Origin: Candidatus Atabeyarchaeum deiterrae | GTDB taxonomy: Archaea; Asgardarchaeota; Atabeyarchaeia; Atabeyarchaeales; Atabeyarchaeaceae | Assembly (NCBI GenBank): GCA_037310415.1 | Contig: CP147780.1 | Coordinates: forward strand, 64,001 to 128,000 | Length of the DNA stretch: 64,000 bases | Direction: 5' to 3' | Part shown: positions 5,720 through 21,679 of the stretch, in pieces | Position numbering within the stretch: the first letter of the stretch is position 1 | Layout of the letters: each line of letters begins with the position of its first letter | The notes under the pieces: model-generated | Database searches by the model: none | Seen by the model: only the letters and a program-made list of their open reading frames with translations | What the model was told of the DNA's origin: nothing | Translations under genes and position numbers: made by a program

Positions 5720-6583
5720 TTGCGAGTTGCATTGAGTACGAGTTGCTTTCTGGAGAAATATGAGGGATACATAGCTCAGTCAGAGGTCCCTGAGAGTGTT
5801 GTCAACAATTCTGATTTGGAGCTGCAGATTGACAGAGGTTTCACCTTCAACGACTTCGCCAAGGCTCATGTGAAATCTATCCACCTTCCTTTTGCTCGAT
5901 TCATACCAGCCATGAAAGGCGGCAGAAGGGTTTGCCTCGAAGGGAGAAACGTGAACATAGCAAGCATAGATGAGAAAAAATGGATACGCGATCTCGAGTA
6001 CTACAAAGATGTAATAAAGCTGTCTCGCGGAAGAGGAATCGAGAACGCCATAGTGCACTATGGCAACTGCACCTGTGGTGGGGAGGCCTACAAGAATCCG
6101 CATCATAGGGAGCTCCACTGGAAGATGGAAGTAAGGTTTCTAAAAGAAGTTAGTAGAGACTTGAAGGAGGCTGGGATAAGATTACTCGTGGAGAACCATC
6201 CGTACCAGGATCGAGTCTTCAAGAATCATGGCACGCATATTCAGAGGATTATCGATGAGAAAGTGGCTCATCTTTGTTTGGATCTTCCTCATGCTTTCAT
6301 AAGACATTCCAAGTTTGGCGATGAGGAGCCTATGAAGTTAATAGAGAAGTTTTACAGGAGTATTTTTGAGATACACCTTGCTGATAATGATGGGGAAGTG
6401 AACGAGTCACTTAGTTTGGGAACTGGGAAAATGCCTTGGCAGAAGCTTATCGATGCTATCGGCGACAAACAGAGGAATATGCTTGTTGTTCTGGAGTTGC
6501 ATGGTGATCCGATGCCATCCATGGATCAGCTCAAAGCGCACATAATAGAAAACGACGCAGAAATGGGCACAGGGAAGACGTGA
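5720..6583 (+). CDS. Sugar phosphate isomerase/epimerase (AP endonuclease 2 TIM barrel)
   Basis: SIHLP, LLVENH, LCLDLPH, EIHLADNDG, LGTGKMPW and VVLE metal-binding motifs. Confidence 0.85.
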   Translation: MRVALSTSCFLEKYEGYIAQSEVPESVVNNSDLELQIDRGFTFNDFAKAHVKSIHLPFARFIPAMKGGRRVCLEGRNVNIASIDEKKWIRDLEYYKDVIKLSRGRGIENAIVHYGNCTCGGEAYKNPHHRELHWKMEVRFLKEVSRDLKEAGIRLLVENHPYQDRVFKNHGTHIQRIIDEKVAHLCLDLPHAFIRHSKFGDEEPMKLIEKFYRSIFEIHLADNDGEVNESLSLGTGKMPWQKLIDAIGDKQRNMLVVLELHGDPMPSMDQLKAHIIENDAEMGTGKT

Positions 6584-6721
6584 TGCGGATCTGATGAGGG
6601 TAGGAGTCCTTATTTTTCCGTTTCTTCTTGATTCTTCCTTCTGAAGATCAGCTAAACTGAGCATCGTTCATGAGCTGGGCTCATGCACTCATTTCTGATC
6701 TCGCCGTAGTGCCCGATCAAA

Positions 6722-6739
6722 AACCTATTAATATAGGTT
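6722..6739. promoter_or_regulatory. Palindromic operator overlapping the TATA box of the thiolase operon
   Basis: AACCTAT-TAAT-ATAGGTT, a perfect 7-bp inverted repeat about 65 bp before the TTG start at 6802. Confidence 0.55.
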
Positions 6740-6801
6740 GCTGGATAAACGAAATCGCGATAATATGGCTTTACAGTATTCACTTGGAGGGTCTGAGATT
6801 A

Positions 6802-8001
6802 TTGAGAAAGGTAGCAATTGTCGGAGCAGGTTTAACACGGTTCTCTGCTTCAAGACACGACGCAAACCAAGAAGAGATGCTCGCCGAGGCGATGAGACAA
6901 GCCACAGAAAATATGGGGACCACGTGGAGTGATTTGCGCAACGAGGTCAACATGGGAATAGGATCTTATTGTAGTGATTTCTTCAATCAGCAGCTGATGT
7001 TCGGCGCGACAGTCCAAGACTACTTTGGGCTGTGCCCAAGATCAAACGTAAGAGTTGAAGCTGTCGGCGCTACTGGCGGGCAGGCGATACGGACTGCTTA
7101 TGCGTATATAGCTGCAAACACTCTGTACGATGTTATTGTCGTGTTCAGTTGGGAGAAGATGTCAGAGGTCAACTATGAGCAGGCGTTGGACTTCCTGGGA
7201 AGAAACTTGGATCTTGATTTTGAATACTATCCTCTAGGAGTCACCATCCCTACGATACATGGTATGATGGCGCAAGCTTACACTAGGAAGTACGGCACTG
7301 GTAGAGAGCAGATCGCCAAGGTGGCCATCAAGAATAGGAAGAATGCATTAGGAAACCCATTCGCAGGATTTGGAGCAGAAATCGGTGTTGAGGATGTACT
7401 GAATTCTAAGCTCCTTTACAGTCCTCTGGGAGAGTTGGATTTTGCTCCAGCTTCCGATGGAGCAGCGGTTCTAGTATTGGCATCAGAGGAAAAGGCAAAG
7501 CAGTTTACAGACACTCCCATATGGATCTCTGGAACTGGCTGCGGAACAGATAAGACGTTTTACAGAAGAACCCGAGATGAAATACCAGCACTAAATTCGA
7601 CCAAGGTAGCCGCCGAGCAGGCTTACAAGATGGCTGGAATAGGAAACCCAGTAAAGGAACTTGACTTTGCTGAAGTCTATGACATGTCAACGATCTATGA
7701 GATCATGGCTTACGAGTCGCTGGGGTTCTGCGCCAAGGGTGAAGGAACTAGACTTCTTGATGAAGGATTGACTGAGAAAGATGGAGAGCTTCCTGTCAAC
7801 GTTGGAGGAGGATGCTTTGGGGCAGGCACGGCGTTAGGAGCAATTGGAGTAAAACAAGCGGTTGAGGCTTTTTGGCAGTTGAGAGGCGAAGCAGACAAGC
7901 GACTCAAGAGTGGCATGCAGGTTGAAGACGCGGAGAAAGCCCTATTACATGTAGAGTCAGGATACGGCGCTTATGGCGTGGTTCACATACTGGAGAAGTG
8001 A
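6802..8001 (+). CDS. Thiolase-superfamily protein (SCP2-thiolase-like), catalytic residues degenerate
   Basis: MRKVAIVGAG start after GGAGG. Has KNRKNALGNP, SDGAA and LPVNVGGG. Cys is absent (EAVGATG), HDAF has become YDMS and GHP has become GTA. Confidence 0.9.
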   Translation: MRKVAIVGAGLTRFSASRHDANQEEMLAEAMRQATENMGTTWSDLRNEVNMGIGSYCSDFFNQQLMFGATVQDYFGLCPRSNVRVEAVGATGGQAIRTAYAYIAANTLYDVIVVFSWEKMSEVNYEQALDFLGRNLDLDFEYYPLGVTIPTIHGMMAQAYTRKYGTGREQIAKVAIKNRKNALGNPFAGFGAEIGVEDVLNSKLLYSPLGELDFAPASDGAAVLVLASEEKAKQFTDTPIWISGTGCGTDKTFYRRTRDEIPALNSTKVAAEQAYKMAGIGNPVKELDFAEVYDMSTIYEIMAYESLGFCAKGEGTRLLDEGLTEKDGELPVNVGGGCFGAGTALGAIGVKQAVEAFWQLRGEADKRLKSGMQVEDAEKALLHVESGYGAYGVVHILEK

Positions 8002-8049
8002 GTAGAAGGCAAGACACGCAATAAGATGTGATATGAGGAGGATTAAAGC

Positions 8050-8514
8050 ATGACAAGAATCTCCAAGACAGAACCTTTGACAATAGTGAAAGATTACAGA
8101 ATAAGATACCAATCCACGTTAGGAGAGGTATCGAAGTTCTTCCTAGACATGGCGAATGAGGGGAAGGTCATGGGAACCCGATGCGAAAAATGCGGGAAAA
8201 CGTATGTCCCCCCTTACCCAAACTGTCCTGACTGCTTCGGCAAAACAAGTTGGGTTGAGGCGCCTAGCAGCGGAGTGGTAGAAGCTTTCACAGTATGCTA
8301 TACGCAGCCTCGCCACTTCAAGAGAAAGCTGCCCTATACGATCGCGTACGTAAGGTTGGACGGGGTAGATACACTGCTCCCAGGTGTGCTCGAAGGCGAT
8401 TCAAGCAAGGTTGAAGAAGGAGCCAAGGTCGCCCTGAAAACAAGGACTCCAAAGAGTGGGTCCAGATGGGGAGTATACGAATCAGACTACTACTTCGAAT
8501 TGGTTAAGGAGTGA
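8050..8514 (+). CDS. DUF35 Zn-ribbon/OB-fold acyl-CoA-binding protein
   Basis: GTRCEKCGKTYVPP...CPDC...GVVEAFTV...PYTIAYVRLDG. Confidence 0.92.
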   Translation: MTRISKTEPLTIVKDYRIRYQSTLGEVSKFFLDMANEGKVMGTRCEKCGKTYVPPYPNCPDCFGKTSWVEAPSSGVVEAFTVCYTQPRHFKRKLPYTIAYVRLDGVDTLLPGVLEGDSSKVEEGAKVALKTRTPKSGSRWGVYESDYYFELVKE

Positions 8515-8520
8515 GAGGAA

Positions 8521-9801
8521 GTGGATAAACGAGTCGCAATAGTTGGAGCAGGATTGGGAAAGTTCGACAAGCCGAGAGAAGACAGGAGAGTCAGAGAACT
8601 CGTAGCCGAATCAGTTAGAATGGCCTTTGACTTCACACCAAATCTCTCGAAAGACGACATAGATATGGGCGTTGCGTCTTATTTCGCAACACACTTTGAT
8701 CAAGAGCACAACCCGGCAATAAGCTGCTGGGATTACATGGGCATGACACCAAAGCCGCTTCTGCACATTGAAGGAGGTGGCGCAACTGGAGCGCTGGCCA
8801 TTTGGGCAGCTTGGCACTACATAAAATCTGGTTTAGCTGATGTAATATTGGTTTATGGACTTGAAACCCAGTCAACCGTGGATTCATCTCTGGCAAACGA
8901 GTTCATAGCCGCTGCATCCGATACTGACTTTGACTACAGTCTGGGAGGATTCTACACTGGCTACTATGCATTGATGTGCACGAGACACTACGAGTTGTAC
9001 AAGACTAATCCTGTGCACACAGCAATGATAGCAGTGAAGAACAAGAGAAACGCTCTGAATAAACCGTTTGCTGAGTTCGGCGCAAACATTACCGTTGAAG
9101 ATGTGTTGAAGTCAAGGTTCATTGCGAGTCCACTTAAGATCTTTGATTGCTGCATGTTGACTGACGGTGCAGCATGTGTCGTGTTGGCATCTGAAGAAAA
9201 AGCGAGAAAATTAACTGATTCACCTATCTGGATCACGGGTGCTGGTGGCGGAAGCGACGCAATGAGACCAGGAGATAGACCCATCGCTGCAGCAGGGACT
9301 TGGGAGAAGGGCGCAAAGACGCCAATCATCAATCCTGATGAAAACATCCAAGCGCTCGCCAAGGTATTATACCCTGACATTCAGTCATTCGGCGCTTGCA
9401 GAGAGGCTGCGAGACAGGCTTACAAGCTGGCAAACATTACCAACCCACTTAAGCAGATCCATCTGGCAGAGTTGCATGACGCCTATACTTCAAGTGAAAT
9501 GCAAACCTACGAGGACATAGGATTCATCCCACATGGAAAGACAGGCAAATGGATTGAGGAAGGCGGACCTTTCGTGGATGGAGATCTCCCCTGTAATCCA
9601 AGTGGTGGACTGATTGGAGTGGGTCACCCCGTCGGGGCAACGGGAATCATGAGCGCGTTCTTCGCATACCATCAGGTGCTGGGAGATGAACCGAAGTTCT
9701 GCACAAACAAAAGCACCGAAGTTCAACGAGCAGAGAAGGCAGTTGTACACTCACATGCTGGGACAGGGACCTACATAGTTGTCATGGTCCTTGAGAAATG
9801 A
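8521..9801 (+). CDS. Thiolase-superfamily protein (SCP2-thiolase-like)
   Basis: EGGGATG (no nucleophilic Cys), TDGAA, ELHDAYT and GHPVGATG. Confidence 0.92.
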   Translation: MDKRVAIVGAGLGKFDKPREDRRVRELVAESVRMAFDFTPNLSKDDIDMGVASYFATHFDQEHNPAISCWDYMGMTPKPLLHIEGGGATGALAIWAAWHYIKSGLADVILVYGLETQSTVDSSLANEFIAAASDTDFDYSLGGFYTGYYALMCTRHYELYKTNPVHTAMIAVKNKRNALNKPFAEFGANITVEDVLKSRFIASPLKIFDCCMLTDGAACVVLASEEKARKLTDSPIWITGAGGGSDAMRPGDRPIAAAGTWEKGAKTPIINPDENIQALAKVLYPDIQSFGACREAARQAYKLANITNPLKQIHLAELHDAYTSSEMQTYEDIGFIPHGKTGKWIEEGGPFVDGDLPCNPSGGLIGVGHPVGATGIMSAFFAYHQVLGDEPKFCTNKSTEVQRAEKAVVHSHAGTGTYIVVMVLEK

Positions 9802-9824
9802 TAGAAAAGGAGAGGATAACCAAA

Positions 9825-10307
9825 ATGTCCGACCAACCTGATGTTTTGAGTTCCGAACCCCTGAGAGTGACGAGAATCCATGACATGACCTGGAATCACA
9901 GTTATGGTAAAATAGATAAGTTCTTCAAAGCATTCGCAAAAGGAAAGCTCTTGGCCACGAGGTGTGAAAAGTGTAACAAGGTCTATGTTCCACCACGAGC
10001 TGACTGCCCATCCTGTATGGCAGACTTGACCCAGAGTTGGGTTGAACTGCCCAAGGAGTGCGAGCTACATACCTTTTCGGTACTCTACTTCGCAGGACCA
10101 ACGTTTTACAAAGACCTACCTTTCATTCTTGGACTTGCAAAATGGCCAGGAGTAGACACTTACCTGATGGCCAGACTCAAAGAAGCCAAACCAGAGGAAG
10201 TCAAGATTGGTATGAAACTAAAAGTGAGATTTGCCGAGCCGCATAGGAGAACCTGGACCGTCCTAGATTTCTGGTACGAGCCAGCAGAAAAGGAAGATAA
10301 GAAATGA
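9825..10307 (+). CDS. DUF35 Zn-ribbon/OB-fold protein
   Basis: ATRCEKCNKVYVPPRADCPSC and VKIGMKLKVRF; SD-like GGAGAGG upstream of 9825. Confidence 0.92.
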   Translation: MSDQPDVLSSEPLRVTRIHDMTWNHSYGKIDKFFKAFAKGKLLATRCEKCNKVYVPPRADCPSCMADLTQSWVELPKECELHTFSVLYFAGPTFYKDLPFILGLAKWPGVDTYLMARLKEAKPEEVKIGMKLKVRFAEPHRRTWTVLDFWYEPAEKEDKK

Positions 10308-10322
10308 AGGTGAGCAAGAAAG

Positions 10323-10589
10323 ATGGCGGAAGAAGTGAGAAAATGTCCAAAATGCAGTACGGAGATGAAGAGCTACAACGGTGGAGCTGGAGTCGTTTGG
10401 ATATGTCCTAAGAAGGGATGCGATCAGTCAGCAATACAGGAATACGAAGTTTCAGTATACCAACGATTTGAAGGAGTAAGGCTGGTCCCAGATTCGAAGG
10501 TATTCTTGCCAGTGGATCAGAGACTCGGCGCCAGAAAGAAGGAAATCTATGATCAGGCTAAACCATATCTCAAAGGAAAGAAGTATTGA
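10323..10589 (+). CDS. Small Zn-ribbon protein, last gene of the thiolase operon
   Basis: CPKC...WICPKKGC; AGGTGA SD site. Confidence 0.75.
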   Translation: MAEEVRKCPKCSTEMKSYNGGAGVVWICPKKGCDQSAIQEYEVSVYQRFEGVRLVPDSKVFLPVDQRLGARKKEIYDQAKPYLKGKKY

Positions 10590-10729
10590 CTTCCTTACTA
10601 TTCTCCAAAATCCTTCCTTTCTTGTAGTGGTTTGAAGGAAGTGTATTTTCTTTTAAGCATCGAATAGTACATCGAATCAAGATCGAAAAAGAGAAAGAGA
10701 GAATCCAGAATAGTGTGATTCTCACGGTC

Positions 10730-11899
10730 TCAGTACCCGAATTCCTTGAATACTTCACGTTGTATAAGGAATCTCAGTACCTCGGCAGTTCCGCCGCCAA
10801 TCATCATTAGCCTTGAGTCTCTGAGCATTCTTTCAACCGGATATTCCCTTGTATAGCCTATGCCTCCGAGTATCTGGAGCGCGTTGCTGGCTACCTCGAA
10901 TGCGGTTTCAGTAGAGTATATCTTTGCCATCGTTGCTTGCTTGGTGGCGGCTATACCTTTGTCGAGTATTCGTGCCGCTTGGAGTGTCAATAGCTTGGCT
11001 GCTTCGATCTTTGTGGCCATTTCTGCTATCTTGAAGCTAACCCCTTCAAATGATCTGATTTTCTTGTCAAATTGTGCGCGTTCATTGGAGTACTTAACAG
11101 CAGCCTCGAATGGGGTTCTGGCATAACCCAGCGCTTGTGCAGCGATGCACACCCTTTCTCTGTCAAGTTCATCCATAAGTACCTTGAAGCCATCATTCTC
11201 TTTTCCTATCATGTTTTCCTTCGGCACCTTGACGTTCTTAAATTCAAGTTGGGATACCTTCGCACCGTGCTGACCGAGCAACTCGTAATCCTTCACGGCA
11301 GTGAAACCCGGCATTCCTTTCTCGACCAAGAAGGCGGACATTCCTTGGTGAGGGTGAACTTCAAGGTTAGTTATGGCGAATACGCAAAGGAAATCTGCCT
11401 GACTCCCATTTGTTATGAATCTTTTTTCACCATTAATCACGTAGTCTTTTCCTTCTAGTTTTGCTCTGGTCTTCATGCCAGCTGTGTCTGAACCTACGTC
11501 TGGCTCTGTGATTCCTATCGCTCCGATCTTTTCTCCCTTGATGACTGGAACTAGGTATTTCTTTTTCTGTTCTTCGCTTCCGAACTTGAACACTGGCATC
11601 GAGTAGAAAAGTGATGATGCTGCTCGTGACATGTCCGTGCCAGGGTTCATGGCTGAAACTTCCTCAGCAACAATGATCTCAAAAGCCATGCCCTTTTCCG
11701 TGCCGCCATACTTGGCCGGATACGGTGACCCCAGGTAACCCTTCTTCCCCATCTTACCTATGAACTCTCTGACAAGCGAGAAATCTTCTTTCCGCTCAAT
11801 CTCTTCAGACACTGGAGCTAATTCACTTTCAACAAATCTTCTGACTTCTTTCCTAAACTTGTTTTCAGCTTCACCGAACAGTATTTCAATCATTTTCAA
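10730..11899 (-). CDS. Acyl-CoA dehydrogenase
   Basis: ITEPDVGSD, INGEKRFITNG, RAQFDKKI, LQILGGIGY and IGGGTAE motifs. Confidence 0.95.
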   Translation of the reverse strand: MKMIEILFGEAENKFRKEVRRFVESELAPVSEEIERKEDFSLVREFIGKMGKKGYLGSPYPAKYGGTEKGMAFEIIVAEEVSAMNPGTDMSRAASSLFYSMPVFKFGSEEQKKKYLVPVIKGEKIGAIGITEPDVGSDTAGMKTRAKLEGKDYVINGEKRFITNGSQADFLCVFAITNLEVHPHQGMSAFLVEKGMPGFTAVKDYELLGQHGAKVSQLEFKNVKVPKENMIGKENDGFKVLMDELDRERVCIAAQALGYARTPFEAAVKYSNERAQFDKKIRSFEGVSFKIAEMATKIEAAKLLTLQAARILDKGIAATKQATMAKIYSTETAFEVASNALQILGGIGYTREYPVERMLRDSRLMMIGGGTAEVLRFLIQREVFKEFGY

Positions 11900-12228
11900 T
11901 CACCGTGATATCATATTGATCCCGTACGTTCCTACTATTAGACGCGCCATCACATATTTCAAGGATGTGATGCAGGTGGATCGTTCGACATCGGTTGTAT
12001 GTGCTTTCTTCTCCAGTATTATATTAGGGATTCGATCGAAAGTGGGCCTTGGCCCGAGTTTCACGTTGCGAGTCTTTGTTTTTGGTGGTTTTCTGCGAAC
12101 TTCTCAAGGAGATCACAAGGTTTTTCTTTAGATTGCCACTAGGGATATGAACACGGTAAGTCCTAGTGACACTTGTCAATCATCTGCTAGCATAACTGCC
12201 TCCAATAGATCGATAGGAGATAAACCAC

Positions 12229-14052
12229 ATGAAGTTTAGAGACGCTTCTGAAGATGAACCATCGTCATCGACCCAAGGAAAACGGGTCATCATAAACCTT
12301 GATGAAACTGATAAATGCGCCGTTGACCGTGAGAACAATTCAAAGGAAATCTCAATCAATGGCGTCCTGAGCATAAAGAATACGAGTAGTAGTTACAGAA
12401 TTTACAACACCTATCTATCCGTGAGCAATCACGGTTTGACCGATATCTCTGAAGGTCGATATCCTGTTGGCGAGATTGGTCCGGATAAGTCTTGGTCAAA
12501 GGACTATTCGGTTTCGACCGACACACCTACTCTGATGTTGAGAGAGACAGTCGATGCCAATTATGAAGACGAAGCCGAGGAACTCCACAGAACTTTCTAT
12601 GCGGGCAAGGAGAATCCCACGTTGTTCAAGATCTCGCTCAGAAACAACTTCGATCACGAAATCACCGACATTGTTTTGAAGAAAGCCATGATACCTGAGC
12701 TCTCCGGGGTTGAAGCTTCGGTTCAACTAGGGGAGGTTGATGTTAATGAGGACAACAGGGTCATTCAATGGACAATCGAGCGATTGAAACCAAGTGAAGA
12801 TAAGACTCTAACCTTGAAGGGAATTGTCAAACCCAAAAGTTCGGAGCCAGTCAAGTGCGGAACAACCGAGGTGAAGTTCAAGGTCGAAGATGGAGCCCGT
12901 TCGGGGATTGACTTGGACCTTGAGTCACTGGTGAAGAGTTTGTCAGGATTGAATATTAGTGAAACAACGTCGGCAGGAAAATGGAGTTTCGAGATATCCT
13001 TCAATAACGCTAGCGATCTGACTACGACACTTGAGGAGTTTATCGTAACGGGGCCAGAAGGGGAAGTCGCCCGCTTCACTCCAGCAGCTGATGTGCCAGC
13101 TGGGGAGTCGTGGACAAAGACTATGGAGTTTGAGTCAAAAGAGGTTCCTGAGCTTCACAAGGAGATTAAGTTCAGAGTTGCTCATGAAGTTCATAGAAGC
13201 ATTGATGGCTATATTTTTAGGGAAGACGACATCTTGCCGGTCGGGCAGATAACCGTTTTGAAGCAATTTGAGCCAGCGGAGATACCAGCATATGAGACTT
13301 TTAACCTAGTAGCGAAGTTGACTGTCGAGAACACTGGATCCGCGGAATTTGATTCAATTAAGTTGGTGGACAGATTGCCCAAGGATTTCAAGCCACCAAG
13401 AGCTGGCGACGTGAGGGCTGCTATCGGAACCTATGAGATTGAATGCAGGGCTGAGATAGATCCAGACGACCAAGAACATGGTACAGAGCACACCATTACT
13501 GCCACGGTGCCCAACTTGTTACGCGGCAAACGTGGTTTGAAGCCATCAGACAAATTGATTATCAACTACCCGATTACTGCCATAGGCGCTAGACCTCCTT
13601 CAGAAACAAAGTACCCTGCACCACTACATGCAACTGCTTTCTCACGACCACCAGGACTGGGAACCGATGCAGAGACGTCAGTGGAAAACCCGCCAGAGAT
13701 AGCCGTCAAGTATGTCAAGAGAATATTGACGGGTGCAACAGGTTTTGAGAGCGTTGAGGAAGGCGTCTACGAAATAACCATACAGGTCAACAACAAGGGT
13801 GAAGCAGGGCTGGAGAATGTCTCCGCTGAGCACTGGATACCTCCTGACTTTGAATTCGTCGAGTACACTCCGAAAAGACTAGTTATGGAAGAGGAAGAAA
13901 CTCCTGATGGGAAGAAAGTGAAGTTCGTGATCCCGAGGATGATCAAGGGAGCAGGAGAAACTATAGTCTACAGAGTCAAAGGTAAACCAGGTGCACATTA
14001 TAAACAGACAGAAGCGAGGTTCAAGGTTCTTGGTGCGCAGAAGAAGGAGTGA
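12229..14052 (+). CDS. Cytoplasmic beta-sandwich protein with a probable mu-homology domain plus Ig/DUF11-like domains
   Basis: No signal peptide. Segments [10 protein letters not shown]...[18 protein letters not shown]...[28 protein letters not shown] and [16 protein letters not shown] parallel the AP mu-subunit C-terminal domain. Confidence 0.6.
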   Translation: [607 protein letters not shown]

Positions 14053-15119
14053 CAGAAGCTTCAAGGAGGGAAATTAGCAGAATGGATCTTCTAACACTGA
14101 TCTCGAGAGGGGTCGTCCCCATCATTGACTTCAAATCCATGAAGGGCGACGTGAAGCCCTTTATGGCTAAATACGGAGGACACATCAATTCAATCGGCAT
14201 TGTAGTCAAAGATGAAACCGGACGGGGGTATTTCGACAACAGTGCGGCGCCTCCTGCATCTCCCGACCACGCAAAGTTTCTGCGCTCCTCGGCTGAACTG
14301 TTTCAGTCTCTTGAGATCAAAGTATACGCCATAGTCGATGCTTTTCTTGACTCTAGAGCAATAAGGGAGCCGAGACGTAGGTCGATTGATCGATTCGGAA
14401 AGCAAAGTGAAAGGTTCTCGTGTCCAAGCAACGTTAGTAATCAGAATGATTTGGCGAAGTTGGTTGAAGAGCTTGCATCTACGAAGCTCGTAGATAACAT
14501 AGTTGTCACCGATAGCGGATTTGTGAGAAGAGACTACTGTTTTTGCGACTCTTGTCAGAAGGAGTTTGCGCAGAGGAACAAGTTACCTCTTCCAGTAACA
14601 AGCAACTCGCTGGCATCCAAGCAGGGGATGTACGATGACTGGATCAAATGGCGTTCGGAGGTCGTAACTAGAGTACTTGACCAAGCGTCGAAGCGCGTTG
14701 CGGAAGTTTCATCGAAAACACAGAGAGAAATTGCGTTCTACGGTGCAGTCGATGTTGATGAGAGAACGGGGTACTTTGATGGGGCTACACGAGATTTCGG
14801 GCAAAAGGCAGAGGACATCATGAAATCATCCAACCTTGCTGTGAGAATCCAGCCGTGGACCCCTATAATACCGTCGAACGATACGCCGGAGTATAGCAGG
14901 ACCATAAACGCATTGAAGACGGTCTCCAACCTTCTGAGTGATAACAATCGCAAAGGGCTAATCTTAGTTTGGAACATAGAGACTGAGGAGGACTTGGCTA
15001 CGACGAAGGACATGGAGAAGGCGCTATCTGCTAGCGGAGTGTTGTCCTTCTTAGGCTATCCCCAAAGCATTGGACCACAAAGAGACGCACACTTAGGATT
15101 AGACCTAGAAGCTAAGTAA
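14049..15119 (+). CDS. Glycoside hydrolase-like TIM barrel (GHL10/GH42-like) with CFCDSC motif
   Basis: IVVKDETGRGYF, FSCPSN, YCFCDSCQKEF and WIKWRSEVVT; 4-bp overlap with the upstream gene. Confidence 0.65.
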   Translation: MTEASRREISRMDLLTLISRGVVPIIDFKSMKGDVKPFMAKYGGHINSIGIVVKDETGRGYFDNSAAPPASPDHAKFLRSSAELFQSLEIKVYAIVDAFLDSRAIREPRRRSIDRFGKQSERFSCPSNVSNQNDLAKLVEELASTKLVDNIVVTDSGFVRRDYCFCDSCQKEFAQRNKLPLPVTSNSLASKQGMYDDWIKWRSEVVTRVLDQASKRVAEVSSKTQREIAFYGAVDVDERTGYFDGATRDFGQKAEDIMKSSNLAVRIQPWTPIIPSNDTPEYSRTINALKTVSNLLSDNNRKGLILVWNIETEEDLATTKDMEKALSASGVLSFLGYPQSIGPQRDAHLGLDLEAK

Positions 15120-15127
15120 TGCGTATT

Positions 15128-15649
15128 CTACTTCTTGCGCTCTTCAGTTTTTCTCTTCTTATCTTTTTCCGTCGTCTCTTTCTCTAAGTGACTCATCTCA
15201 TAAAGCATTCTACCTTCAACAATCTTTGCTTCAGGTTTAACCTTCTCGGACACCATCTCGTACTTTTCAACAGTATACCAGACCCCGTCTGCGACCTTCT
15301 TGTAAGATTTCTTCAGAAGTTCCTGAAGTTCAACAAAGCTGGAGCTGGTCTCGCTGGTCGACTCTATTAGTGATTGATCGATTTCGATGATTCTGCAGTC
15401 TCTTCCCACAGGGAATTCCAGCCCCTTTGCGCGGAGCCCGAATATCGGAATGGAGTTTGCAGCCCTTTTTGCAGTCATTCTGTTGTTCTGAGAGCTTCCC
15501 ATTCCCAGCCACATGTAAATCCTTTTTGAAGATTCATCGATTACCATTACGACCTTGCCTGGTGCCAAGATTCTCGTTGAAAGCTCAGCCGGATTCAATT
15601 CTCCAGAAGGGCTAGCTTCAAACACCGCCACAAATTTCCTAGAGTTCAT
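15128..15649 (-). CDS. Single gelsolin-like domain protein
   Basis: LAPGKVVMVIDESSKRIYMWLGMGSSQNNRMTAKRAANSI matches the gelsolin repeat pattern. Confidence 0.75.
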   Translation of the reverse strand: MNSRKFVAVFEASPSGELNPAELSTRILAPGKVVMVIDESSKRIYMWLGMGSSQNNRMTAKRAANSIPIFGLRAKGLEFPVGRDCRIIEIDQSLIESTSETSSSFVELQELLKKSYKKVADGVWYTVEKYEMVSEKVKPEAKIVEGRMLYEMSHLEKETTEKDKKRKTEERKK

Positions 15650-16409: not shown

Positions 16410-18683
16410 ATGGATCTTGTTGAGTCTTCCGCGATGATCCTGCTCAATCTGATTCCTCTTTTCGCAATATTGCTCTTCTACCCTTTTATACGTAGAGATG
16501 TGTGGAGAAGAGCATATGTCAGACTGAGTCTTTGCTTCATAGCGTTCTGGCTTGGATACTATATATTTCCAGTTGCACTCTTCAGCTTGGCAAACATACC
16601 ACAGACACATTTTGACTTGTCTCCCCCTGTTAGCTACAATCCCTGGATATCGGCAATAGGGTATTACATAACAATATTCCTCAACCTTGTTGCCGTTTTT
16701 GCGAAGACGACTCTGTTTGTGATGCCCTTCGCCTTTCTCTTCGCTCCACTTATCGCAGTTGCCATCCTGGCCCTGTATTTGAGAGGCCAGAAAGGCTCAT
16801 TTGGGGAGAAGATAAATGAGGTGGGTTACCGGTATGAGTCGAGTCCACTTCAGAGAGTCCGCGACAGACTTAAGGAAGGACAATGGAAAGAAGAGAAAGA
16901 ACTGTTCAAGTTGATGATCGTATTTCTTCCTATTTCCCTTTTCGTTCTTACTTTCATACTCGCCGTCTCCGGTCAACTTGCAGTGACTCACACTTTCGTC
17001 GACGCAGGTTTAATCGTATTCATAGAGGACTTGGTAGCTTATTTGGCAAGTTTCCTTGCTGCTGTCTATTTGCTATATTCCTCGAAGCTTAGTTTTCGTG
17101 GCAAATCGTTGGGAGACAGGATAAAGTTTTCTGTTAACAATTCCTTGTTGAGAACTGGAACATTCATCGCCCTTCTCTCATTAGTTGCTTTCATCGCGCA
17201 GTATTCTCTAATGTGGATTACGATGAGTTACTTCATTGTTTACTACATTATGATGAGTGTAATCTTTGCTATTCTGCTGCCATTTTTTGAACCCTTTAGT
17301 TCGCTACTATTTATCAAGTTGGTCAACTTTACCAGGGGTTCCAAGCTCAGTGCCAAGCTTAGGAGTGTCTTCAGCCGGAGATCGATTTCCCCTATAATCT
17401 TCGGATTTGCAGTGGCAAGCACTGCAGTAGTAATGCGAGGGCTTGTTGATTTGGGCATAGCATTTTCCAGTAGTCTCAGTTCCCTGGCAATCTGGTATAA
17501 TTCCACTTTGCTACCGGCAGTCTCAATCCTTGGTTCTCCGTCGTTTACAGATGAACTCTGGTACATCAGGCTGTTCTTGATCTTCGCAACCAGGGATGTT
17601 TTGGAATTTTTTGTTGTGGCCTACATTTTGGTGTGGTTTGTGAGACAGCAGAACTCTTCTATAACTGCAACAGTTCTGTCAACCGCTGTCTTCTCCTCCA
17701 TATACTACCTGGTGTCAAGTATTCCTGTCGCAGCCAGCTTGATTCCTCAAAGCACGCCTTTGTACTGGTTTACGGCTGCCCCTGCTATCATGACGGCGCC
17801 AGACTTCTACCTTCCAGTTTCTAGGATCGGTACGCTACCTGTTCAAAACTCCCTCTTGGGCAACGCGGAGCTACTATACCTATCGCTCAGCCCTCTCTTG
17901 TTGCTACTCCTTTTGTCATACTTGATCAAGTACCGGAAAGACCCGCTATATCTGACAGAGAAGATCGGAGAAGAAACAGTAACCGAGAAAGCCTACTCAA
18001 GACTCTCCGTCATGCCAAGCTTAAGTGACGTGAAGAGTCCGACTAAGGATAATGTATTCAAGTATGGTCACCCTCCGAAGAAGAGTAGAACCTTGAAGGA
18101 TGTCTCCCCTGAAACCCGAGACGATATAAAGAAGGTGACCGAAGCACTCGGTAAGAATATGCTTACTGGTTTCTCAAATCTGGCTGGCGAAACTGGTGTG
18201 GAAGCAAAGAAACTCTATGGCATTCTACGGTATATGGTTTCCACTGGATTGGTTGAAGCGTATGGCGTGGAATTCACATCAGTGACTCCGAGGGCAGCGC
18301 TTCAGAACCTCTATGTTACAACAAAGGTTGGGTTGAACATTTTCAATTACTCATTTGGTTCGCTGACGATTGATCCTGCGCTTGTCTCAGGGATGCTGAC
18401 GGCTATAACTAGCTTCATAAAAGAGGCTACAAGGTCCAAGCAGTCTCTTAGAACCATCGAGCATGGAGATGTTGTCCTGATGATCGAGTATGGCAACTTT
18501 GTCTTCGGAACAATAGTTGCCGACGAAGAGACGCCCGATCTCAGAATGGCATTGAGAAAGTTCGTGGATCAGTTTGAGAAGAAACATGGTGCTGCTGTGG
18601 CGAATTGGACAGGACGAGTGGAGGAATTTGACCAGGACAAGAGCATGGTAGTGTTGATTTTCAAGCAATACTTGAATGCGTAA
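16410..18683 (+). CDS. Polytopic membrane protein (about 12-13 TM) fused to a winged helix and a C-terminal longin-like domain
   Basis: Many TM helices; wHTH-like FSNLAGETGVEAKKLYGILRYMVSTGLV; longin-like LYVTTKVGLNIFNYSF...DPALVSGMLTAITSFIKEA...FVDQFEKKH...WTG. Confidence 0.8.
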   Translation: MDLVESSAMILLNLIPLFAILLFYPFIRRDVWRRAYVRLSLCFIAFWLGYYIFPVALFSLANIPQTHFDLSPPVSYNPWISAIGYYITIFLNLVAVFAKTTLFVMPFAFLFAPLIAVAILALYLRGQKGSFGEKINEVGYRYESSPLQRVRDRLKEGQWKEEKELFKLMIVFLPISLFVLTFILAVSGQLAVTHTFVDAGLIVFIEDLVAYLASFLAAVYLLYSSKLSFRGKSLGDRIKFSVNNSLLRTGTFIALLSLVAFIAQYSLMWITMSYFIVYYIMMSVIFAILLPFFEPFSSLLFIKLVNFTRGSKLSAKLRSVFSRRSISPIIFGFAVASTAVVMRGLVDLGIAFSSSLSSLAIWYNSTLLPAVSILGSPSFTDELWYIRLFLIFATRDVLEFFVVAYILVWFVRQQNSSITATVLSTAVFSSIYYLVSSIPVAASLIPQSTPLYWFTAAPAIMTAPDFYLPVSRIGTLPVQNSLLGNAELLYLSLSPLLLLLLLSYLIKYRKDPLYLTEKIGEETVTEKAYSRLSVMPSLSDVKSPTKDNVFKYGHPPKKSRTLKDVSPETRDDIKKVTEALGKNMLTGFSNLAGETGVEAKKLYGILRYMVSTGLVEAYGVEFTSVTPRAALQNLYVTTKVGLNIFNYSFGSLTIDPALVSGMLTAITSFIKEATRSKQSLRTIEHGDVVLMIEYGNFVFGTIVADEETPDLRMALRKFVDQFEKKHGAAVANWTGRVEEFDQDKSMVVLIFKQYLNA

Positions 18684-20258: not shown

Positions 20259-20786
20259 CTATTCCTGCCGTTTTTCGAGTCCTTGCGCCTTGTACTTCTT
20301 ACATAGGTCCATATAGGCTTTGTTTCCTGCCTTGATCATTGTCACATCGCTGTCGGTAAGTTGCCTTAGCGGTTTTGCAGGTAGACCCGCCATCAAGGTT
20401 CTCGGAGGGACTTTCGTGTCAGCGAGAACTACTGCTCCAAGAGCAACCATTGATTCTTTACCTATTACCGCTCTATCAAAGACAATTGCGTTGATGCTTA
20501 TGAGGGATCCACTTTCTATTCGAGCTCCGTGTATACAACACCCATGAGCTAGTACGCAGTTATCGCCGATCGTCGTTGGTCCGTCACCGTGGATTACGGA
20601 GTTATCTTGTATTGTATTGAATTTACCTATCCTTATTTTGGCCAAATCGCCTCTTATTACCGCGCCATACCAAATGCTGGTTCCCTCTCCTACTTCCACA
20701 TCACCTATTATAGTTGCATTTGGAGCCACAAAAGCAGTAGGATCTATTTTTGGTTTTTTCCCATCCAATTCGACTAAAATGGGCAT
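20259..20786 (-). CDS. Gamma carbonic anhydrase family protein (left-handed beta-helix)
   Basis: IWYGAVIRGD, TIQDNSVIH and LAHGCCIHG (three His ligands). Confidence 0.93.
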   Translation of the reverse strand: MPILVELDGKKPKIDPTAFVAPNATIIGDVEVGEGTSIWYGAVIRGDLAKIRIGKFNTIQDNSVIHGDGPTTIGDNCVLAHGCCIHGARIESGSLISINAIVFDRAVIGKESMVALGAVVLADTKVPPRTLMAGLPAKPLRQLTDSDVTMIKAGNKAYMDLCKKYKAQGLEKRQE

Positions 20787-20956
20787 TCATGCGTCACCTT
20801 CCTATTTCGCGTATTCCGGAATCTGTCGATCAAACGACACTAGGTTCGTTTTTTGTTTCACTCATCTGTAGCAGCAGTATGACAACATTTTTAGTTAAAG
20901 AGAACAGATGATCTACTTATACTTTGGGAAGCTGGTGCTCACATGGTGGAGTATCA

Positions 20957-21679
20957 ATGACTGATAATCTTGATGAGGATAAGAGGGAAGCAGAGAAGAT
21001 CGATCAAGCATGGAAGAAAAAGAAGATTGAGTTCATTCAACAGGAATCCGACGGATCACTTGACAATCGCCAAATTCTGAAGGAATGGATCAGACGTAGC
21101 ATAGATGGGCATGGGAATATCCCGCCCAAAATAAGGGATAGAGTTGACAATGTCGGGAAAGATTTTGGAATTACGGTCGACGACGTTGTCGAAGAGGTCA
21201 TGGAGGAGCAGGTGCTTGAAAAAGGTGGAAAGGTGAACGATGAGAAACTTGCATTTCTGCTATTGCAGAAGGCACAAAGACTGCGCGACCAGAATGGTGG
21301 AATCATGACCTTAGCTGAAGCGCTACTAATGGCAGAAAGAGGGGGCTGCCTATCAGGTAAATTAAGAAACGAAGACATAGAGAAGGCAGTAGAGATACTG
21401 TCAAAGCAGAAGTTAATACCAGGGATGAGGAAGCTGAGTTCTGGCCTGAAAATCATCTACTTCTTTCCTATCGAGTTCAGTCCGGATCAGAACACGTTAT
21501 TGTCAATTGCCAGCGAACAGGGTTGGACAACATTAGAGGAGGTAATGATGAGAACTAGTTGGTCTCGGGAGAGAGCGGAGTTAACCCTAGGCGAACTCGA
21601 GAGAGCGGGAATATCACGGCTCGATTCCAGCTACTCTGCCGGCAAGAAGTGGTACTTCCCAGGGTTCATTACACAATAG
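20957..21679 (+). CDS. ESCRT-II Vps22/Vps36-like (EAP30) tandem winged-helix protein
   Basis: QNGGIMTLAE...EDIEKAVEIL...PIEFSPDQNTLLSIASEQGWTT...WSRERAELTLGELERAG...WYFP parallels Vps22/SNF8. Confidence 0.85.
   Translation: MTDNLDEDKREAEKIDQAWKKKKIEFIQQESDGSLDNRQILKEWIRRSIDGHGNIPPKIRDRVDNVGKDFGITVDDVVEEVMEEQVLEKGGKVNDEKLAFLLLQKAQRLRDQNGGIMTLAEALLMAERGGCLSGKLRNEDIEKAVEILSKQKLIPGMRKLSSGLKIIYFFPIEFSPDQNTLLSIASEQGWTTLEEVMMRTSWSRERAELTLGELERAGISRLDSSYSAGKKWYFPGFITQ

Follow-up and report, generated by a model that had tools for sequence, protein, structure and literature searches.

We analyzed a 64,000-nucleotide stretch of the genome of the Asgard archaeon Candidatus Atabeyarchaeum deiterrae (assembly GCA_037310415.1, contig CP147780.1, positions 64,001 to 128,000 of the forward strand). 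This stretch is referred to below as the window, and coordinates are counted from its first letter. Two open reading frames (ORFs) located on the same strand, ORF A (12229–14052) and ORF B, could be read from the window sequence as described in a first-pass annotation that had been made from the sequence alone. ORF A encodes a protein whose N-terminal module very probably has the fold of the mu-homology domain (MHD), the cargo-binding domain of vesicle-coat adaptors; ORF B encodes a predicted barrel of the glycoside hydrolase (GH) type. Vesicle-coat adaptors are a hallmark of eukaryotes. The features of the locus, all on the plus strand, are as follows.

12216–12220, plus strand: Shine-Dalgarno-like sequence AGGAG, 8 nucleotides (nt) 5' of the ATG of ORF A (read from the sequence)
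12229–14052, plus strand: ORF A, 607 amino acids (aa), predicted cytosolic, MHD-like module in front of two CLIPPER/DUF11 domains
12271–13233, plus strand: MHD-like module, residues 15–335 (AlphaFold2, Foldseek, VIA)
12286–12555, plus strand: D1, residues 20–109, six strands in the secondary structure of the model, corresponding to the N-terminal part of MHD subdomain A
12613–12930, plus strand: D2, residues 129–234, counterpart of MHD subdomain B and best DUF11/CLIPPER stretch (Pfam DUF11 at 133–202, Adap_comp_sub at 125–230)
12940–13221, plus strand: D3, residues 238–331, enlarged C-terminal part, ending in strands that align with those at the C-terminus of mu2
13246–14049, plus strand: two C-terminal beta-sandwich domains of the DUF11/CLIPPER type, residues ~340–607 (Pfam DUF11, TIGR01451; outside the modelled residues 1–339)
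14065–14069, plus strand: GGAGG, putative ribosome-binding site of ORF B, 12 nt 5' of the ATG at 14082 (read from the sequence)
14082–15119, plus strand: ORF B, 345 aa from the ATG, predicted GH-like (beta/alpha)8 barrel (start of relatives, AlphaFold2 model, Foldseek)
14421–14555, plus strand: four-cysteine set of ORF B, C114 and C153-x-C155-xx-C158, invariant in 24 sequences down to 22% identity

In the first-pass annotation, ORF B was read from the GTG at position 14049, which gives a protein of 356 aa and a 4-bp overlap with ORF A, and the two genes were taken to be translationally coupled. We rejected this start, because both reference-aligned relatives of ORF B begin at a methionine matching the ATG at 14082 and the GGAGG motif precedes this codon. 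Nearly all of the 24 members of the family are 326–345 aa long, as the ATG at 14082 predicts. Thus, the overlap is probably a start-codon artefact; most likely the true start of ORF B is the ATG at 14082, leaving a spacer of 29 nt between the genes. The pair is flanked by a divergent acyl-CoA dehydrogenase gene upstream and by a convergent gene 9 nt downstream. Together the two ORFs probably make up a unit of two genes that is co-transcribed in this lineage, with a separate ribosome-binding site for each.

The structure of residues 1–339 of ORF A was predicted by AlphaFold2 from a 103-sequence alignment (102 relatives) without templates. The model has a mean predicted local distance difference test score (pLDDT) of 95 and a predicted template modelling score (pTM) of 0.86, with pLDDT varying from 94.4 to 95.0 among the five models. 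It is all beta and is composed of three sandwich units, D1, D2 and D3, the first of which carries the family motifs LDE and NxS..R.WN with conserved E26, G45 and N51. In a Foldseek search against the PDB, all of the matches listed (41 rows, ranks 1–50) were MHDs with E values from 1.8e-12 to 2e-9; AP2 mu2 came first (E 1.8e-12), followed by AP3, AP1, AP4 and delta-COP. A VIA-align search of 48,161 representative chains, which is independent of Foldseek, likewise had MHDs at all ranks from 1 to 10, with AP2 at Z 16.7 (root-mean-square deviation 2.6 A, 219 aligned residues). Further Z values were 15.9 for AP4, 15.8 for AP3, 15.6 for the AP2 core, 15.4 for SGIP1 and AP1, 15.0 and 13.5 for delta-COP and 13.2 for Syp1. 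Single CnaA/CLIPPER-like or adhesin sandwiches appeared from Z 12.0 down, the solved CLIPPER domain 9ifr being at Z 11.5.

When the Foldseek list was realigned with VIA, AP2 mu2 reached Z 17.2, the alignment comprising 228 of its 250 residues at 3.1 A. This alignment pairs model residues 15–333 with residues 168–435 of the mu2 chain, and the ranges reach 335 and 437, respectively, in VIA. As 228 of 319 model residues are aligned, the module has about 90 residues inserted with respect to mu2; judging from the domain sizes, D3 would hold most of them. Since D1 and D2 together comprise only about 200 residues and the alignment reaches the C-terminus of mu2, some strands of D3 are expected to occupy the position at which the C-terminal strands of mu2 run back. 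The interleaved topology of MHDs, in which the chain returns to subdomain A, is therefore suggested by the aligned ranges and counts.

Comparison with the MHDs of the mu subunits of adaptor protein (AP) complexes AP-1 to AP-4 and of COPI delta (among them AP2 mu2 in PDB 6bnt, 1bw8 and 7ohz) revealed that: (i) the predicted fold is shared at Z 15–17 over 210–228 of ~250 residues; (ii) sequence likeness is weak but consistent, with 10–15% identity for the module, and among the shared conserved residues are a Glu that follows strand 1, a Gly in strand 2 and a Trp in subdomain B; while (iii) ORF A differs in having no longin domain, in the extra residues of the module (apparently mostly in D3) and in two additional C-terminal sandwiches. 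Since its MHD starts at residue 15 and no longin domain precedes it, ORF A is not a mu or delta subunit, and no large or small AP subunits are known alongside it. We consider it highly probable that residues ~1–320 of ORF A adopt a true MHD fold and that they are homologous to MHDs. A stand-alone prokaryotic MHD in an Asgard archaeon had been proposed in the first-pass annotation, which suggested structure prediction and a fold search against AP2 mu2 and delta-COP. The high-confidence model and the MHDs heading both structure searches support this proposal, the matches not being confined to DUF11 or S-layer Ig domains.

At the sequence level, the Pfam family Adap_comp_sub (PF00928) matched ORF A with an E value of 6.2e-6 and 26.2 bits, residues 125–230 being aligned with profile positions 121–231; the gathering cut-off of this family is 31.6 bits. 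One relative, P0071, passes the cut-off with 34.4 bits, and another, P0054, gives 30.6 bits over profile positions 18–233, that is, over both lobes. We also compared all PDB sequences with a profile built from six relatives over the N-terminal 339 residues. The top 12 matches were all AP-3 or AP-2 mu subunits (E 0.03–1.4), with the AP-3 mu alignment spanning ORF A residues 132–229. A single-sequence search of the PDB with ORF A gave chance matches only. The PF00928-type signal is weak in ORF A but consistent across the family.

It should be mentioned that three segments of ORF A had initially been described as collinear with the C-terminal domain of mu2/mu1. The second and third of them (residues ~125–230) lie in the stretch covered by the PF00928 alignment; the AP-3/AP-2 mu profile alignments cover it too, with the pairings proposed for these segments. 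The first fits the start of the structural alignment (model residue 15 at mu2 residue 168) and the PF00928 positions covered by P0054. The lack of an N-terminal longin domain was also confirmed: the longin family Clat_adaptor_s (PF01217) had no match in ORF A, nor in ten relatives with N-terminal extensions.

The sub-cut-off PF00928 score and the low identity to MHDs could be taken to mean that the MHD likeness is an artefact, composed of a chance Pfam match and a structure prediction biased to a known fold. This explanation is extremely improbable, considering the high pLDDT of all five models, made from a 103-sequence alignment without templates, the agreement of Foldseek and VIA, the relative scoring over the Pfam cut-off and the exclusive presence of mu subunits among the top 12 profile matches.

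The strongest Pfam match of ORF A was to DUF11 (PF01345, now CLIPPER), with an E value of 2.3e-13 and 50.9 bits against a cut-off of 24.6, in three stretches including D2. In addition, TIGR01451 matched residues 517–548 with 28.5 bits (cut-off 24). The extra Ig-like domains noticed behind the module in the initial reading can therefore be assigned to the DUF11/CLIPPER type. Bacterial multi-DUF11 surface proteins match only D2 of the module (profile positions 130–203), many times each, and therefore the middle lobe is recognisably a CLIPPER-type domain. These sequence matches suggest that the MHD was built from CLIPPER-type repeats.

The same matches also count in favour of an alternative, according to which ORF A is an array of CnaA/CLIPPER sandwiches serving as a non-catalytic, carbohydrate-binding or oligomerising partner of the barrel, and its MHD likeness reflects shared descent from prokaryotic Ig-like repeats and not an adaptor function. 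Beta-sandwich domains are known to flank GH35 and GH42 barrels. The DUF11 match that includes D2, the alignment of 9ifr at Z 11.5 and the repeated matching of D2 by bacterial surface proteins all agree with this alternative. On the structural side, however, whole-module MHD matches lie 4–5 Z units over any single sandwich and cover ~90% of the MHD. The gene linkage also bears on this alternative and is considered below.

The DUF11 matches raise the further question of whether ORF A is a protein of the cell surface. According to a published description (bioRxiv 10.1101/2025.04.25.650565), DUF11/CLIPPER domains form the extracellular stalks of fibrillar adhesins, and CLIPPER proteins are extracellular and often contain tandem repeats stabilised by intramolecular Lys-Asn isopeptide bonds, although some DUF11 domains are devoid of these bonds. 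Public records, too, name relatives of ORF A "DUF11 domain-containing protein". Thus, ORF A could be regarded as an adhesin or S-layer-type protein exported by an unrecognised route, with an incidental likeness to MHDs. ORF A resembles CLIPPER proteins both in sequence and in structure (PF01345; 9ifr) but differs from them in lacking an export signal and in the MHD arrangement of its first three sandwiches. Its N-terminus is acidic and polar without a hydrophobic segment, and neither a signal peptide nor a transmembrane helix or anchor was found in ORF A or in nearly all of ~150 relatives. The absence of a signal peptide, noted in the first-pass annotation, thus holds and extends to transmembrane helices. 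Besides, the partner and neighbour genes are of cytosolic types and the adhesin matches fall far below the MHD matches. ORF A is therefore unlikely to be a surface protein, and we regard the adhesin explanation as very improbable.

For ORF B, the AlphaFold2 model (pLDDT 87.5, pTM 0.90) is a (beta/alpha)8 barrel. Foldseek aligned it with beta-amylase, the C-terminal glycosidase domain of PgaB, Cwp19, GH35/GH42 galactosidases and GH156 sialidase (E 6e-12 to 3e-8, TM-score ~0.6). The profile of the ORF B family matched the alpha-L-fucosidase 6tvk with an E value of 5e-5 across the CxCxxC motif, and weak matches to Pfam GHL13 and NCBIfam PgaB were obtained; the sequence did not place ORF B in any curated GH family. 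The predicted model and the Foldseek matches bear out the initial description of the partner as a GH-like barrel.

Barrels of the GH42/GH151 type likewise contain a C...CxCxxC arrangement, and the motif of ORF B is aligned with its 6tvk counterpart. In GH42 enzymes, zinc is bound by cysteines in this pattern. By analogy, the four-cysteine set of ORF B is probably a structural metal site.

Clan GH-A retaining glycosidases share the (beta/alpha)8 barrel with ORF B but not the pair of Glu residues at strands 4 and 7: neither the model nor the alignment revealed a conserved catalytic Glu or other acid at the ends of these strands in the ORF B family. The end of strand 4 reads D-x-G in close relatives and L-T-G in distant ones, and the end of strand 7 reads W-N-I-E or W-S/P-P. 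Compared with PgaB (GH153), Cwp19, beta-amylase (GH14), GH35/GH42 and the GH151 enzyme 6tvk, ORF B has the conserved acids D16, D90 and D226 instead of the Glu residues of strands 4 and 7. These three aspartates are located at the mouth of the barrel together with several conserved tryptophans, and their conservation points to a likely ligand site there. In the initial reading the partner was considered to lack the usual acidic catalytic motif, which is borne out for strands 4 and 7, and to be possibly non-catalytic. The latter was not confirmed: with D16, D90 and D226 conserved, the barrel may still be a catalyst.

We studied the distribution of both families in Asgard archaea. A profile search of 1.84 billion representative proteins revealed 318 relatives of ORF A, 116 of them with the whole module. 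All named relatives belong to Asgard archaea (Thorarchaeota, Ranarchaeia, Promethearchaeota) and are annotated as "hypothetical" or "DUF11 domain-containing". Close relatives, with 60–70% identity for both proteins (65–70% for ORF A), were found among records of Njordarchaeota, Njordarchaeum guaymaensis and Atabeyarchaeia, and a scan of genome contigs for close loci detected two. In total, the MHD module profile matched 237 out of 301 sampled genomes of the phylum (79%), including 77 of the 90 high-quality ones, and 61 of 70 genera were represented. As a rule, the number of module copies varied from one to three per genome; the genome studied here (a single contig of 2.76 Mb) contains one.

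Many members of the family carry N-terminal extensions of several kinds, some of them proline-rich. In particular, long proline-rich extensions with PPAPPG-type repeats precede the MHD module in P0069, P0072, P0093, P0107 and P0118. Proline-rich tracts of eukaryotic proteins bind profilin or SH3/WW domains. The gene surroundings vary as well: in the P0016/P0017 lineage (the P0017 cluster is named Thorarchaeota) a Lactamase_B_3 metallo-hydrolase gene is located upstream of the MHD gene (L003, 2977–3612; L007, 136–831) and not the acyl-CoA dehydrogenase block.

The barrel family was revealed by profile search in 202 of the 301 sampled genomes, and its positions were compared with those of the MHD module. 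Linkage was found in the following genome families.

Family f1 (this genome): barrel gene adjoins the MHD gene on the same strand
Family f8 (G007): barrel gene adjoins the MHD gene on the same strand
Family f14 (G018, G047): barrel gene adjoins the MHD gene on the same strand
Family f12: barrel gene 3–4 kb from the MHD gene, divergent
Family f18: barrel gene 7–10 kb from the MHD gene
Family f6: barrel gene at a constant distance of ~16 kb from the MHD gene

The barrel gene was also found directly 3' of the MHD gene of a relative with 33% identity (24% identity between the barrels, E 3e-39). At the f6 loci, no barrel was found within ~700 nt downstream of the MHD gene. In family f9, 64 out of 68 genomes contained the MHD module and none of the 68 a detectable barrel. 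The supposition that the barrel always lies beside the MHD gene was therefore rejected. Since the module is kept in f9 where the barrel was not found, the pair is not an obligate complex; the association of the two genes is recurrent, not obligatory. The conservation of the gene pair in Asgard genomes, which the first-pass annotation had proposed to examine, was thus borne out for the six linked families and not for f9. It should be added that the small-genome family f2 has the inverse gap, with the barrel in four of four genomes and the MHD module in none of the four.

These data allow us to return to the possibility that ORF A is a non-catalytic accessory of the barrel. The presence of the barrel gene next to or near the MHD gene in at least six Asgard families and the conserved aromatic residues and aspartates at the barrel mouth are in its favour. 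It is less compatible with f9, which keeps the MHD protein without a barrel being found, with the two f6 genes, which lie ~16 kb apart and do not share an operon, and with the unrelated N-terminal extensions of many relatives (proline-rich among others), which suggest protein-protein roles. We consider this alternative rather unlikely; it is the main one. The accessory and adaptor interpretations could also both be partly true.

The family of ORF A has already been published as an Asgard candidate for Adap_comp_sub, and the idea is therefore not new. Eme et al. (2023; Nature 618:992; PMC10307638) reported that Asgard archaea have each of the five AP-complex Pfam domains, among them the mu C-terminal domain, in unfused form. 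According to the same work, Adap_comp_sub is present in the majority of Asgard phyla "with a sparse distribution" (PMC10307638, Extended Data Fig. 3 as well as the supplementary discussion), PF00928 having 44 occurrences in Table S3. The first candidate of this table, a Jordarchaeia protein, shares the N-terminal motifs of the ORF A family (PMC10307638). Thus, the candidates of Eme et al. belong to the family of ORF A and, like it, stand alone, unfused to a Clat_adaptor_s longin. The main texts of the literature searched contained nothing relevant on Asgard mu-homology or Adap_comp_sub domains, the relevant statement of Eme et al. being found in their extended data and supplementary material.

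The published listing comprises Pfam/InterPro matches and is sparse, whereas the whole-module profile used here detected the module in about four fifths of the sampled Asgard genomes. Besides this wider distribution, we add a comparison of the fold with solved MHDs, the architecture with its enlarged third lobe and pair of CLIPPER domains, the recognition of the middle lobe as CLIPPER-type and the recurrent association with the gene of a Cys4 GH-like barrel.

What could be the function of such a protein? By analogy with other MHDs, ORF A may offer a rigid platform to which short linear motifs or partner proteins bind, perhaps on a membrane. The pocket used would probably differ from the YxxPhi pocket of mu2. 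The tyrosine pocket of mu2 comprises F174, D176, K203, W421 and R423; by ungapped offset from the start of the structural alignment, the counterparts of F174, D176 and K203 in ORF A are I21, N23 and K50. Position 23 is occupied by N, S, R or G and position 50 by K or N among close relatives, so that the tyrosine-pocket counterparts appear not to be conserved in the family. ORF A therefore probably does not use the mu2 tyrosine pocket and would in this respect be nearer to the MHDs of delta-COP and the muniscins.

MHDs of delta-COP and muniscins bind motifs other than YxxPhi. In muniscins (FCHo1/2, SGIP1, yeast Syp1), as in ORF A, the MHD is located outside the AP tetramer and is not accompanied by a longin domain. 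Their structural matches to the ORF A module were at Z 15.4–15.7 for SGIP1, 14.8 for FCHo1 and 13.2 for Syp1, only slightly poorer than that of mu2. Binding of non-YxxPhi motifs in the manner of muniscins is thus, by analogy, the more likely model for ORF A. The domain order is different: the MHD of muniscins is C-terminal and follows an F-BAR domain or a disordered linker, whereas that of ORF A is N-terminal and precedes the CLIPPER domains. The barrel, in turn, would be a lineage-variable partner of ORF A and not an obligate subunit.

Several observations weigh against this interpretation. The fold has been predicted and not solved, and its interleaved topology is deduced from aligned ranges and counts. 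The PF00928 score of ORF A itself is under the gathering cut-off, and D2 matches DUF11/CLIPPER better than PF00928; part of the sequence signal is therefore generic to such sandwiches. The variation at the pocket positions 23 and 50 and the f9 genomes, which have the module and no barrel found, belong here as well. Finally, PF01217, representing the longin/sigma-type proteins, had no match in the genome studied, but the control genomes were equally silent and this negative carries no weight.

Taking these points together, we somewhat favour the view that ORF A is a cytoplasmic, longin-free Asgard MHD protein with two CLIPPER domains that acts as an adaptor-type platform and has the barrel as a lineage-variable partner. 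The adaptor-type mechanism taken on its own is put forward tentatively, our confidence in it being somewhat short of even. ORF A is a well-defined, probably soluble protein, encoded by a single-copy gene with a conserved neighbour in a closed Asgard genome. This makes it possible to test at the bench what an MHD binds in a cell without AP complexes.

The CLIPPER/DUF11 nature of the middle lobe suggests a source of the MHD fold. A prokaryotic precursor of the AP, COPI delta and muniscin cargo-recognition module had been inferred in the first-pass annotation, a proposal about evolution that we treat as conjecture. It can be speculated that the MHD arose within Asgard archaea by the welding of CLIPPER-type sandwich repeats into a three-lobed module, from which the cargo-recognition domain of AP complexes, COPI and muniscins would descend directly. 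The first role of this module would have been that of an adaptor without a longin domain, accompanied in several lineages by a Cys4 GH-like barrel; the fusion with the longin domain would have followed in eukaryotes. As a complete scenario this is unlikely, and we offer it as a speculation.

Some neighbouring genes of the window should also be mentioned. The gene at 15128–15649 (minus strand), convergent with ORF B, encodes a protein of 173 aa without a Pfam match and is kept at the same place in close relatives. In the ESM Atlas this protein falls among Asgard clusters, some of them with Gelsolin (PF00626), with feature scores of 0.92–0.94. Its Atlas model has a TM-score of 0.80 to a 124-aa Asgard cluster (15% Gelsolin) and of 0.45–0.50 to eukaryotic gelsolin/villin clusters. 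On the strength of this model it may be treated as a lead, a candidate Asgard gelsolin-like protein.

The next gene, at 16410–18683 (plus strand), encodes a 757-aa protein and is conserved downstream in relatives. Pfam gave no match for it, the Atlas model is poor (pLDDT 0.44), and its look-alikes are only family-less Asgard clusters. Farther downstream, a hexapeptide-repeat protein is encoded at 20259–20786 (minus strand); its similarity to dynactin subunit 5 (PF21711) stays below the threshold, at 34.7 bits where 40 are required. A protein of the EAP30/Vps36 family, of the ESCRT-II type (PF04157, 6.4e-13), is encoded at 20924–21679 (plus strand), about 6 kb downstream of ORF A and ORF B.

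Upstream of the MHD gene, the block at 5720–11899 contains genes for a xylose-isomerase-like TIM barrel, two pairs of a thiolase and a ChsH2-type OB/zinc-ribbon protein, a small zinc-ribbon protein and the acyl-CoA dehydrogenase. An ORF at 11760–12131 (plus strand), which partly coincides with the 5' end of this dehydrogenase gene, was left out of consideration. The order of the block upstream of the MHD gene is conserved in related metagenome contigs.

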